In this document: positions 8,223-23,381 of the stretch, in pieces | Numbering within the stretch: the stretch's first letter is position 1 | Layout: each line of letters begins with the position of its first letter | NCBI GenBank assembly: GCA_024275415.1 | Contig: JAJRZD010000024.1 | Coordinates: forward strand, 64,427 to 96,426 | Origin: an archaeon | GTDB lineage: Archaea; Asgardarchaeota; Thorarchaeia; Thorarchaeales; Thorarchaeaceae | Direction: 5' to 3' | Length of the DNA: 32,000 nt | Position numbers and translations under genes: made by a program | The notes under the pieces: model-generated | The model's input: the letters and a program-made list of their open reading frames with translations, nothing else | What the model was told of the DNA's origin: nothing | Database searches by the model: none

Positions 8223-9125
8223 CTATTTTGCTTTTTGAATGAAACGCACTGTCTTGCCTCGGTAGGGGATTAGACATTGCAGTGCTTGGAAGTATAGCAT
8301 CCCTAACATATCCGCAATCTCATGAAGTGTTCGGTTCCCATCACAAAGTTCAATCACCGCTCGATGTTCCTTTTTGACCTTGCTCAAATCTCCTTCAAAG
8401 ACAGGAAGTTCAATGATCTCTTTTTGGCCGGATGTTTGCTCTTCGGGGCATTCGATCCTGACAATGTGTCGAGAAACGCACCATCTCACAATCTCGCTTG
8501 TTCGGTCAATCGACCTGTCAAGGGTTTGAGCTATCTTTGCGACAGTTCGCTTCTCATCGACCATCATTAGAATATCCATGCCAATATTGGCAAAGTGCTT
8601 CTTTAGTTCCAGATAGAGAGGCGAATCAATTCTCATTGCATCGGAATACCGATCATCTTTGTGGACAATACAACCATGTCGCACATTGATCGTTTCCAGA
8701 GGAACCGTATCAGAGTCGTCTGGGGGGGAAACCTGAGTTTCAGGCGGATGTACCTCCGTACTAGCTTCGTCCTCCGAGTCTGGGATAATAACGGAAGTGG
8801 GTGGAGGAGGCAGCTCCGTGTTCCCGAGAAGTTGAATGACATCAGAGGTCTTCTGCAATGCACCACCCAATGACTCCTCAGCGATGAAAAGAACACCGAG
8901 TACCCAATTCGAGTCGACTCGTGCTAAAACGACGGTGCCTTCGCCCGTCATCACATTCATCAATTTAAGTGATTTCGAGTGAATCTTCATGGTTCCTCGA
9001 ATGACCGGAAGCGTTTCTTCTGGCAGGGAGAATGAAAGGAACGGCTCACCATCATTCGTGAAAAGAGCATAACCTCTTACGGATTCGTCATATCGTAGTT
9101 TGGTCAACACTCTTTCCAGTTCCAT
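8223..9125 (-). CDS. Roadblock/LC7-like domain + Pro/acidic linker + two winged-helix-like domains, copy B
   Basis: Ungapped paralogy with 5401-6381 (ELERVLTKLRYDESVRGYALFT vs ELERALSKLRFDDQVLGYSLMT; ELPPPP; IELCDGNRTLHEIA). Confidence 0.7.
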   Translation of the reverse strand: MELERVLTKLRYDESVRGYALFTNDGEPFLSFSLPEETLPVIRGTMKIHSKSLKLMNVMTGEGTVVLARVDSNWVLGVLFIAEESLGGALQKTSDVIQLLGNTELPPPPTSVIIPDSEDEASTEVHPPETQVSPPDDSDTVPLETINVRHGCIVHKDDRYSDAMRIDSPLYLELKKHFANIGMDILMMVDEKRTVAKIAQTLDRSIDRTSEIVRWCVSRHIVRIECPEEQTSGQKEIIELPVFEGDLSKVKKEHRAVIELCDGNRTLHEIADMLGMLYFQALQCLIPYRGKTVRFIQKAK

Positions 9126-9162: not shown

Positions 9163-10296
9163 CTATCCTGTATTTGGCTTAAGTAATTTTGTGCCATGCT
9201 CAGACAGGGCTGGACTTTCCTCTAGGAAGGTTATAACTTGACCTGTTGTGGGATGCTCAGTGGTGCCAAAAGAAACATACAGGGCAGCAACCGCATTTGC
9301 AAGGGTTAGACGCTCCATGTCTGGCAACCTAGCAAGAAACCCATAGATGGATCCTGCATTCCATGCATCACCAGCACCGCAGAGGATTTTCGATTGCACG
9401 TCAAATGATGGCTGTCCAAGAACCACATCATCTTTCAGGGTAGCAGAGAAGAACGGTGTGTGGAGATCCACCTGTACACCTGTTTCAGCGGCAACATATT
9501 CAGCCGCAGAAATCCATCGCCAAGGTTCTTTGAGAGATTCTCGCCATTTATCAGACCCCCCACTAAGAGCCCATGCATACCAGCACGCCTCGTTCTCATT
9601 CATCCCGATGATGTCAACAAGTCCGTCCAAGACCACCTGTTTCAGCAAGGGTTTGAGGAACTCAGGACGTCCTGAAGGATCACCAGTGTCCATGAAAGTG
9701 ATAGCGTTCCCGCTCTGTCGAATGAATTGAAACAACCCATGTGACAATTCTACAGCATTCTTGTTGTGATTCAGGTTCAGCAGGCAGACCAGTCCACTAT
9801 CTACTATGACGTCCAGATCCGATTCGGTGAGGTCATCGAACCCAAAGGACGAGGCTGAGCCGCTATCACTCACCATCAGATTCACTCTACGACCAGAATA
9901 TTCCAACTCTATCGAAACAGTTGAGGAAAGTCTGCCATCAGTATGAACGTGATCAAGATTGATTGTAGGGGGCATCAACGATTCTAATAGTTTCTTGCCT
10001 TGCAAATCCGTGGTCGCAATCAATACTGGATCCACACCTAGTGAGGATAATGCTGCCGCGGTATTTGCGGAGTTACCCCCTCTGCGGACCATATGCCTTG
10101 ACCCAAGAAGATTCCCCCCACCCTGTCTAGCCAAGGATTCGAGTCCATCAATGAATGAGTTGAAATCATCAGCTATAACAAAGAAGTCCAAAAAGAAATC
10201 TGGTAGAATGACGGGGTGTTTGGTAAAGCAGGGCGTCTTCAGAGATTCAATGAGGGAATCGCAACTCTTCATGATTCCCTCAGAGAAGGACTTCAT
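9163..10296 (-). CDS. PfkB family carbohydrate/nucleoside kinase
   Basis: N-terminal GGNSANTAAALSSLG and C-terminal anion-hole motif CGAGDAWNAG. Confidence 0.88.
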   Translation of the reverse strand: MKSFSEGIMKSCDSLIESLKTPCFTKHPVILPDFFLDFFVIADDFNSFIDGLESLARQGGGNLLGSRHMVRRGGNSANTAAALSSLGVDPVLIATTDLQGKKLLESLMPPTINLDHVHTDGRLSSTVSIELEYSGRRVNLMVSDSGSASSFGFDDLTESDLDVIVDSGLVCLLNLNHNKNAVELSHGLFQFIRQSGNAITFMDTGDPSGRPEFLKPLLKQVVLDGLVDIIGMNENEACWYAWALSGGSDKWRESLKEPWRWISAAEYVAAETGVQVDLHTPFFSATLKDDVVLGQPSFDVQSKILCGAGDAWNAGSIYGFLARLPDMERLTLANAVAALYVSFGTTEHPTTGQVITFLEESPALSEHGTKLLKPNTG

Positions 10297-10300
10297 CCTC

Positions 10301-10498
10301 TTAGACTTTGTTCAGGGCGGCCTTGACCATTGCTGTGAGCCTGTCAGCATCAATTCCTGACTTGTTCGATATCTTATCGATATCACAGTATGCCAAATCT
10401 TCAAGTGTGGTAATCCCAGCAGCAACTAGTGCTTCGGCATCGGCCTTCTTCACTGCCTTAAGTGACGAGAGCTCTGTGACAGCATCTGGAGCAACTGG
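10301..10498 (-). other. Helix-hairpin-helix domain reading frame continuing in-frame after the rpl13e TAA
   Basis: Manual translation: PVAPDAVTELSSLKAVKKADAEALVAAGITTLEDLAYCDIDKISNKSGIDADRLTAMVKAALNKV* (65 aa). HhH_5/Rad51-N-like pattern, with no start codon ahead of the domain. Confidence 0.8.
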
Positions 10499-10747
10499 TT
10501 ACGCCTCTTCTTCTGCAAGAAGTGCTTCGACAACTTCTTCCATTTCCTTCACATAGTTCTTCAGAATCTCAACATTCTGAGGGTGCATGGTCTTTCTGCG
10601 AAGATCGACAATAAGACCCATGTCTCGTGCCTCTTTGATTGTCAGACCAGCATCTGCAAGCTCACCCTTGGTAAATCCTCTTCCCCTACGGAACTTGGCA
10701 TCATCGGGGGATTTCACAACTGGTTCTACAGCAATGTCGAAGCTCAT
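10499..10747 (-). CDS. rpl13e: 50S ribosomal protein L13e
   Basis: PVVKSP...RRGRGFTKGELADAGLTIKEARDMGLIVDLRRKTMHPQNVEILK matches the L13e RxGRGFSxxEL...VDxRRxxxxxxN pattern. Confidence 0.93.
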   Translation of the reverse strand: MSFDIAVEPVVKSPDDAKFRRGRGFTKGELADAGLTIKEARDMGLIVDLRRKTMHPQNVEILKNYVKEMEEVVEALLAEEEA

Positions 10748-11212
10748 TTAACTGACCACCTGACTTTGCTCACCCCTCGCGGTTTGCTTATTAGCCTTTC
10801 GAGATGGCAACGAGGATGTCAGCCTAAAGTTTCTGAACTGTTTGATGGGATACAGAAGACAAAAATTTCAATCTGCCACTGATTTTAATCGATTGTCGCA
10901 TTGTGCGAGAACCTCCCGTAAGATTTCGCTTTCCGAAAATCACTTGTTCCAAAAGTATGCTTAGACTTCCCAGGATCCACCATGTACCATGCCCCCTATC
11001 CACCACCATTATGTTTCCCATTATTGCTAACAAAAACCATAGGGCCAGTGGCTCTTTTCGTCCCACCTGCCACCCTTATGGTAACAGTTTCAACATCTTA
11101 TTCGTATCAGTTTTAACCAATAGATAATTACGAATCTTATTTAGAGAACATCACAGAGGTTCAATAAAATCAAGAATATCATTCATCCGTTATTGCAAGT
11201 GTACAATGCTGG

Positions 11213-21435: not shown

Positions 21436-21578
21436 TAGACTTCCCTTACCATGAAGGTTTTCTCACAAATGGTATATGAGTCTTCTGCGACTCAAGGGAT
21501 ATCGAGTCCTCAAGAGCAACCAATATCAGGGAAGCCTGCTCTGAGAAAAATCGTACTTGGGCCAATCGGTGAAACATC

Positions 21579-22886
21579 ATGATGACTGACAAGGAGAAGC
21601 TGCAGAAAGCAATGCAATCAATAAAAGAAGGGAAAAAAGAGATAGCTTGCAAGCTTCTTGCACAGGTCGCCGAGAACTTCTCAGCCAAACGAGAGTACAA
21701 ACGCGCAGCACGTGTCTTTGAGAAAGCTGGTATCCTTGCCAGAATCATGAATCGTCCTGAGGAAGCGTTGGCATATCTAGAAAAAGCAGTAGTCGAATAT
21801 ATGAGAATGCACTCTGATGATGTGCATCCAGAGATTGTAAGAGTGAACTCCCTTGCTGCGGAGGTTGCGGCAGATACCCAGGACTTTGGAGCAGCAGCCG
21901 AGTTTTATTTCAGAGCTCTAGATTTCGAACAAGAGGAGCAGAAGCCGGCACTCGTCTTGAAGGCAGTTGATGCATTAGAAACTCTAGCGGATAGGCAAGA
22001 GGTCGAGGGAAACCTAGAGGAGTCAATCAGACTAATCAAGAAAATCAGCAGGATATACTATTCGTTGGATGATGAAGAACTTGGACACCGAATGAACGAG
22101 CGAGCAATCAGGACTGCCCTTAGATGGGCTGAGAATGCAAAACAAGCAAAAGATTACTTACAAGTGGGCAACGCTCTAGCTGAAGCCGCACAACTCCATC
22201 AGTCAAACGACGAATTCGTAGATGCTGCAAAACTGATGGTTGACGCAGGAGAGCATTACGAGGCTGCTGAGGCATACGAGAAGGCAGGGAACATCTATGA
22301 CGCGGCTCAAGAGATATACAAGCTCGAGAGATTGACTGCAAAGCGGAATCAGGCAATGTTCAAAGCAGCCGAGGCATATGTGAAGATGGAGGGAAAGCCA
22401 GAGGTCGTAGCACCTTTGCTTGTTAAGGCAGGAGATATGTTCTCCGAACTGCAAAGCACAATGAAGGCAAGATGGGCCTACAAAAAAGTCAATGAGATCT
22501 TTGAGAGATTGGCAAAGTCTGCTGCTGAGATCCAAGATATAGAATCCGAGAAGACCTATCTGAGATATCAAGCAATGTGCTTGGAGAAGTGGGGCAGCGA
22601 AGAAGAGGCTGAGCAAATTTACAACGAGGTGATAGACTACTTCCTCACGCAAGCAAAGCAGGAGGAAGAACGGGATAACAAGGAGCTTCAGGCACTCTCG
22701 TTAGAATCGGCAGCAGGGGTTCTCATCGAGGCAGGTAGGATTGAAGAAGCCAAGATCCATCAAGAAAGAGCCATAGAACTCTATGTCGAGCTTGCGGATT
22801 CAAGTGCAGTAAGGGAAAGCTTTGATGAGAGCTCCAGATTTTACTCGAAGGCTGCCGAATGTGCAGGAAAGATGGGAGAGCATTAA
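21579..22886 (+). CDS. TPR/alpha-solenoid protein with SNAP (NSF attachment protein)-like repeats, N-terminal 435 aa
   Basis: Ala/Glu-rich helical repeats of the form AAxxYEKAG; the segment GNALAEAAQLH...DAA...VDAG resembles alpha-SNAP. Confidence 0.75.
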   Translation: MMTDKEKLQKAMQSIKEGKKEIACKLLAQVAENFSAKREYKRAARVFEKAGILARIMNRPEEALAYLEKAVVEYMRMHSDDVHPEIVRVNSLAAEVAADTQDFGAAAEFYFRALDFEQEEQKPALVLKAVDALETLADRQEVEGNLEESIRLIKKISRIYYSLDDEELGHRMNERAIRTALRWAENAKQAKDYLQVGNALAEAAQLHQSNDEFVDAAKLMVDAGEHYEAAEAYEKAGNIYDAAQEIYKLERLTAKRNQAMFKAAEAYVKMEGKPEVVAPLLVKAGDMFSELQSTMKARWAYKKVNEIFERLAKSAAEIQDIESEKTYLRYQAMCLEKWGSEEEAEQIYNEVIDYFLTQAKQEEERDNKELQALSLESAAGVLIEAGRIEEAKIHQERAIELYVELADSSAVRESFDESSRFYSKAAECAGKMGEH

Positions 22887-23381
22887 CGTGAGGAGTCATT
22901 TCATTGGATTGCAAGCGAGAAGGCCGAGCAGGCTGCAAAGCTCTATGAAAAGATGGAAATTCATGAGTTGGCAACAGTATGGACTAGAACAGCAGGACTG
23001 GAAGCTCTACAGATTAATAATCAAGATACCCTTGAGCGAGCGACTCGGCTGCTTGAAAAGTCAGCAAGGGAGTTCTTGAGCATAGGCGAGGAGAAAGAGG
23101 CATTCAATGACCTATTCATGGTCTACTCGACCATTTACTCATGGAAACAACCCGAGTCGTCGGATCACCTCGATGAAATAATGAGCCAATTAGAAGAGAT
23201 TGCAAGGATAACAAAAGACGAGGAGGTTCAAGCAACGATGGCGGTGGTTCGAGAGCTCCAAAGAGGAAAATACATAGCTGCGCTCCTAGCACTGCAAGAG
23301 AGGGAGGATGACCTCCTGAGTCGGCGCGATAAGCTTAGGGAACTCATCAAACTTGGTGATTCAAAAGAGAGAGCAAAATAA
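22887..23381 (+). other. In-frame continuation of the solenoid protein beyond TAA 22884-22886 (includes track ORF 22953-23381)
   Basis: CAT TAA CGT GAG GAG TCA TTT CAT TGG...: REESFHWIASEKAEQAAKLYEKMEIHELA continues the same repeat pattern in the same frame. Confidence 0.75.

Follow-up and report, generated by a model that had tools for sequence, protein, structure and literature searches.

According to a 2023 review, in which no HhH domain on the protein is mentioned, Thor-, Loki- and Odinarchaeota have ribosomal protein eL13 (L13e). Our full-text search of the literature found no paper describing a HhH domain on eL13. Known forms of the protein differ at the C-terminus. The crenarchaeal type ends after ∼83 residues, and the proteins of Pyrobaculum calidifontis (157 aa) and of eukaryotes (∼200 aa) carry C-terminal extensions of other kinds. 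A HhH-type domain does occur on another archaeal large-subunit protein, haloarchaeal L32e (NCBIfam NF009401, 238 positions), and this provides a precedent, although the ribosomal protein and the lineage are different and the domain is N-terminal there.

The window studied here, a 32,000-nt stretch of DNA from a Thorarchaeon (contig JAJRZD010000024.1), contains an eL13 gene on its minus strand that continues in frame, past a TAA codon, into a HhH domain. The eL13 core (10502–10747) begins with ATG 10747–10745 and comprises 82 sense codons, the last four being GAA GAA GAG GCG. After the internal TAA (10499–10501) come another 65 sense codons (10304–10498), reading PVAPDAVTELSSLKAV...AALNKV, which encode a linker and a five-helix (HhH)2 domain and make up the gene's C-terminal half. 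They end at the TAA of 10303–10301, which is the natural stop of the full-length gene, as the relatives stop at the same aligned position (...AALKKV/ALNKV). The earliest ATG, GTG or TTG beyond the internal TAA is GTG 10453, 16 codons downstream, and hence the HhH domain lacks a start of its own. Directly past the final TAA lies GAGG, followed by the ATG (10296) of a pfkB-like kinase gene. The original prediction described the TAA-split layout, the open 65-codon frame, the missing start ahead of the domain and the adjacency of pfkB, and it is confirmed in every detail. The chance of an open 65-codon frame is ∼4% (61/64 per codon); the downstream frame can nevertheless be taken as non-random, because >100 uninterrupted relatives match it over its whole length with their C-terminal halves. 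The eL13 gene is single-copy in the genome, and no record with the exact product of the 82-aa ORF was found in public assemblies.

Upstream of the gene is a conserved region (10748–10807, minus strand). The block CCATCTCGAAAG-N-CTAATAAG plus GGTG(G/A) is kept before the eL13-HhH gene in same-genus and same-family loci (L002–L009), with the TATA-like CTAATAAG at ∼40–47 nt and GGTG(G/A) at ∼6–11 nt from the eL13 ATG. These elements resemble a BRE/TATA promoter and a Shine-Dalgarno site, respectively, and may serve as such. At the other end of the locus, the pfkB-like gene (10270–10296, minus strand) has two in-frame ATGs, 10296 and 10272. The corresponding gene of the nearest relative starts MKTYKALID and aligns with the second of these (MKSCDSLIE), so that the true start may be 10272.

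Profile searches identify both halves of the product. The core matches Pfam Ribosomal_L13e (PF01294) with 43.6 bits (cut-off 24.9), residues 7–68 corresponding to profile positions 47–115. Against the archaeal L13e model of NCBIfam (NF008914; model positions 24–80 of 83), it scores 78.1 bits (E = 2.9e-22), short of the 96 bits that the curators require of an equivalog; by NCBI's rule, the core would thus be classed as a relative of this crenarchaeal-type model and not as an equivalog. The downstream part matches Pfam HHH_5 (PF14520) with 32.5 bits (cut-off 27) and gives weak NCBIfam matches to nusA_Cterm_rpt, RadA and HhH-bearing haloarchaeal L32e models. When the family profile was compared with solved ribosomes, matches were confined to the core, with E values of 4.3e-13 for P. 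calidifontis eL13, 2e-10 for yeast and ∼1e-10 for others. The tail of the same profile matched E. coli NusA residues 404–487, the C-terminal HhH repeats (E = 3e-8).

A structural model is consistent with these assignments. The AlphaFold model is that of a 79%-identical uninterrupted relative, built from 71 aligned sequences, with a mean pLDDT of 77.6. In it, a small eL13 core ends in a long helix (56–80), which is followed by a short low-confidence linker and by tail helices 86–93, 101–109, 115–119, 123–130 and 134–147 (pLDDT ∼75–82). Five helices are what one would expect of a (HhH)2 domain. Foldseek placed 63–75 columns of this model on eL13 chains (rmsd 2–4 Å, probability 1.00, E ∼1e-3); a search of the PDB with the whole model returned no match at E ≤ 0.001, with eL13 and NusA chains just over the threshold. 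In the tail of the window protein, every column that is invariant in the family is retained: L93, L107, G111, I112, DLAYC (117–121), K125, K129, I132, A144, L145 and K147. Leu96, like Leu93, is invariant, and both belong to the first HhH helix. The linker between the core and the HhH domain, by contrast with these columns, is variable; its 15–20 residues, of acidic/Pro type, are the least conserved part of the protein.

The fusion is found well beyond the window. In a six-frame search of 40 related genomes, the 148-residue product was uninterrupted in 19 of the 19 best loci, which come from six same-genus genomes and 13 genomes of other genera in the family; an in-frame TAA appeared only in the window's own genome. 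The lengths of these relatives (147–156 aa) agree with the 148 residues proposed for the fused protein, and all 19 carry the HhH extension. When 301 genomes of the phylum were searched with a profile, ∼58 genomes of the family matched positions 1–148 without a stop, and the fused eL13-HhH was also detected in many other Asgard families. A search of the protein database gave 264 relatives, the best 120 of which are nearly all 145–157 aa long (mostly 148–149 aa); these 120 come from Thorarchaeota, Sifarchaeia and Promethearchaeota, and those that are named are mostly called ribosomal protein L13e. The eL13-HhH frame of other Asgard families is often extended further at its C-terminus, in frames of 155–457 aa, and in G035, G051, G061, G271, G274, G278, G297 and others it runs for 230–490 aa.

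Not all relatives have the tail. A sister family and three genera of the family studied here have a core-only eL13 of 69–99 aa (loci L021 in G017, L022 in G010, L023 in G019 and L024 in G025), and in G017 the tail-less gene still precedes a pfkB-like gene. This pattern indicates that the HhH tail is lost naturally, either more than once or in one clade. From its distribution in the phylum-wide profile search, the fusion is old and widespread in Asgard archaea, has disappeared a few times, and is broken only in this assembly. The eL13-(HhH)2 fusion is thus real and conserved, and databases label it just 'L13e'. The original prediction had singled out the HhH extension as notable; this holds, with the qualification that the extension is conserved Asgard-wide and is not peculiar to the window gene.

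The tail-less proteins also bear on how the stop should be read. The TAA could be a genuine and very recent nonsense mutation, in which case the eL13 made here would be an 82-aa protein without the tail and the HhH part an untranslated, undecayed relic. A genuine truncation would probably be tolerated, because the 82-aa core matches in size the tail-less eL13 of three genera in the same family. The crenarchaeal-type NCBIfam model is similarly short, at 83 positions, and the stop sits within the linker, where conservation is lowest. These points favor a truncation and speak against an error in the sequence. Nonetheless, we consider a truncation unlikely, based on the state of the tail and on other stops in the assembly, which are discussed below.

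At the codon aligned to the TAA (10499–10501), the six same-genus loci have AAA (four), AAG (one) and GCA (one). A comparison with related Thorarchaeia at this position had been suggested as a check; it gives a sense codon in every case and Lys in five of six, which places the TAA one base away from a Lys codon. Public sequencing runs were also looked up for reads holding this stretch, and none was listed. No stop was found at this codon in any other full-length relative, whether among the 19 loci, the ∼58 genomes of the family or the further matches across the phylum. By parsimony, the TAA would derive from AAA by an A>T change, although it is possible that the organism's own ancestor had GAA, which would make the change G>T.

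How long could the stop have been in place? Divergence from the nearest relative, expressed as pN rather than dN/dS (synonymous sites are saturated), is 0.128 for the HhH part and 0.131 for the core. Given that pN in the tail equals that in the core and that the invariant columns are kept, the stop must be very recent or not real. By these values, the tail has been under purifying selection along practically the entire branch, and the stop is hence without evolutionary depth. A HhH part free of any decay is not what a truncation would leave behind, unless the truncation happened very recently indeed.

Programmed readthrough of the TAA, yielding two eL13 isoforms (the core alone and the core plus HhH), was the other option put forward in the original prediction. 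The frame is open, the downstream domain is intact, and the stop is followed by a C, which in bacteria and eukaryotes makes for the leakiest context, although this is not known to hold for archaea. Yet programmed readthrough sites are conserved, and this stop is absent from every relative examined. For a 111-nt segment that takes in the stop and the sequence beyond it, predicted RNA structure was no better than that of shuffled sequences (z = +0.86). ARAGORN was run over the whole genome with and without introns, and none of the 16–23 tRNAs recovered has TTA or CTA as its anticodon; this set is incomplete in a fragmented genome of 127 contigs and makes the absence of a suppressor weak evidence. 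Moreover, this assembly has similar stops in the catalytic domains of genes unrelated to eL13. We therefore regard programmed readthrough as very improbable, and this part of the original prediction is not supported. Separately, ARAGORN predicted a tRNA-SeC with anticodon TCA (G000, complement 8832–8922), a hint that this Thorarchaeon may decode selenocysteine.

Another way to express the tail would be termination at the TAA followed by re-initiation at GTG 10453, producing a separate HhH peptide of 50 aa. The only thing in its favor is that this GTG is the first possible start past the stop. However, it is the codon of a nearly invariant Val in the AVKK motif, a start there would delete the first helix with the invariant Leu93 and Leu96, no Shine-Dalgarno-like motif lies at a proper distance from it, and the gene is split in no relative. 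These data make re-initiation extremely improbable.

The assembly contains many comparable interruptions. We scanned the genome in six frames for single stops flanked on either side by an open stretch of 40 codons or more. Both flanks had to show a dicodon coding signal, and the eight codons that follow the stop had to be free of start codons. This yielded 52 junctions (21 TAG, 20 TAA and 11 TGA), eL13-HhH among them. Twenty were compared with Pfam, reading the stop as X. In seven of these, a single Pfam domain spans the stop: Rpb2 domain 6 (rpoB), PAS_4 (in a histidine kinase), SMC_N, Pyr_redox_2, KaiC, Peptidase_M29 and CN_hydrolase. In several other junctions of the 20, no Pfam domain extends across the stop. 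Four proved to be ordinary gene borders (AFOR/luciferase-like, SBDS/Rrp4, HisRS/Memo and IMPase/Mrp) and were rejected; they include both of the TGA cases tested, and the interruptions verified so far are TAA or TAG only.

A second private TAA lies in the window itself, 12 kb from the first, at 22884–22886. It splits a SNAP/TPR-like gene of 602 codons (21573–23378, plus strand) into 437 and 164 codons. In five same-genus relatives this gene is uninterrupted, with 601–603 aa (656 aa in G004), and the codon at the position of the stop is GAA in four loci and AAA in one.

For six genes, i.e. five of the seven with a domain across the stop plus the SNAP/TPR-like gene, every orthologue in five same-genus genomes is uninterrupted. 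The relatives have Ser codons (TCA, TCT or TCG) at the TAA sites of rpoB, Pyr_redox and CN_hydrolase, GAA or GAG at two TAA sites, and GAT or GAC at the TAG site of KaiC. All changes that could be typed are transversions, mostly G:C>T:A (TCA>TAA three times, GAA>TAA twice). The rpoB case is particularly informative. This genome has one copy of the gene, in which a TAA (contig C117, 12139–12141, minus strand; locus L033) replaces an invariant Ser in Rpb2 domain 6, within the catalytic domain. A fixed stop in a single-copy rpoB would be lethal, and it follows that at least some of these stops cannot be real. Further stops lie at C71 24502, C8 2449, C110 38739, C100 44002 and C127 87310; in the same numbering, the eL13 codon is C127 74925–74927.

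Substitutions of the type G:C>T:A are the pattern left by oxidised guanine in a library or in environmental DNA. The stops seen here resemble such errors in metagenome-assembled genomes in being private, scattered, caused by single bases and located in essential genes, and five of the seven typed stops are G>T or C>A. One caveat is that the eL13 change is A>T by parsimony, whereas the other typed stops are G:C>T:A. This difference counts against a shared cause and lends some weight to a recent truncation of eL13. The cause of the eL13 stop may or may not be the same as that of the others. On the other hand, with so many private stops in the assembly, including a non-viable one in rpoB, a shared non-biological cause is the simpler account of the eL13 stop as well.

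It is also conceivable that the TAA and the genome's other private TAA and TAG codons are genuine and are decoded at some frequency, so that eL13 is made in forms of 82 and 148 aa. If true, this would give ribosomes with and without the HhH tail. We give this scenario very little credence; that the Asgard-wide eL13-(HhH)2 is a real feature is much more likely.

Collectively, these data argue that the window holds one ordinary eL13-(HhH)2 gene, whose TAA most probably reflects DNA damage or an error in the consensus and calls for no special decoding. The suggestion that an L13e-HhH fusion had been broken by a nonsense change or a sequencing error is supported by the intact relatives, by Lys in five of six same-genus loci and by the other private stops. 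Under this interpretation, 10301–10747 (minus strand) would be a single gene for eL13 with a C-terminal (HhH)2, the normal form in Thorarchaeia and many other Asgard archaea, and the TAA at 10499–10501 would be a one-base substitution among the scattered private nonsense changes of a metagenome-assembled genome. The product of the living organism is then most likely the 148-aa fusion. Such a protein could be anchored in the large subunit by its eL13 core, with the variable acidic/Pro linker tethering a HhH module that would touch either a partner protein or the backbone of an rRNA helix close by. Beside the second hairpin, two invariant residues, Lys125 and Lys129, seem suited to backbone contacts, and by analogy the tail might bind nucleic acid.

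Our verdict is that the stop is not a biological feature. For annotation, this means a single eL13-HhH gene of 148 codons in which one base is suspect, instead of a short L13e and an orphan. For the assembly as a whole, in-frame TAA and TAG codons are noise, which makes it unfit for mining recoding events. A by-product of modest interest is the conserved (HhH)2 on eL13 in Thorarchaeia and many other Asgard families, of which we found no description in the literature.

Compared with known eL13 proteins (PF01294/NF008914; e.g. chain AH of the P. calidifontis 50S structure 9e6q and the eukaryotic 60S protein), residues 7–70 of the window protein share the core, including GRGF and DxRR. It is longer than the crenarchaeal-type protein by the (HhH)2 extension, which takes the place of the other extensions of P. 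calidifontis and eukaryotes. With the haloarchaeal L32e model, the similarity is weak, positions 7–63 of NF009401 matching the window HhH with E = 2.4e-4, far under the model cut-off. The extension itself is most like the N-terminal domain of RadA/Rad51 and the C-terminal acidic repeats of NusA, with which it has in common a length of ∼57 residues, five helices and two hairpins. Unlike these, it is carried on a ribosomal protein, its first hairpin lacks the usual Gly (KAVKK), and it has an invariant DLAYC motif of the family's own. The NusA repeats of the same fold bind proteins, not nucleic acid, and a NusA/RadA-like module on eL13 may tether the large subunit to either kind of partner, nucleic acid or protein.
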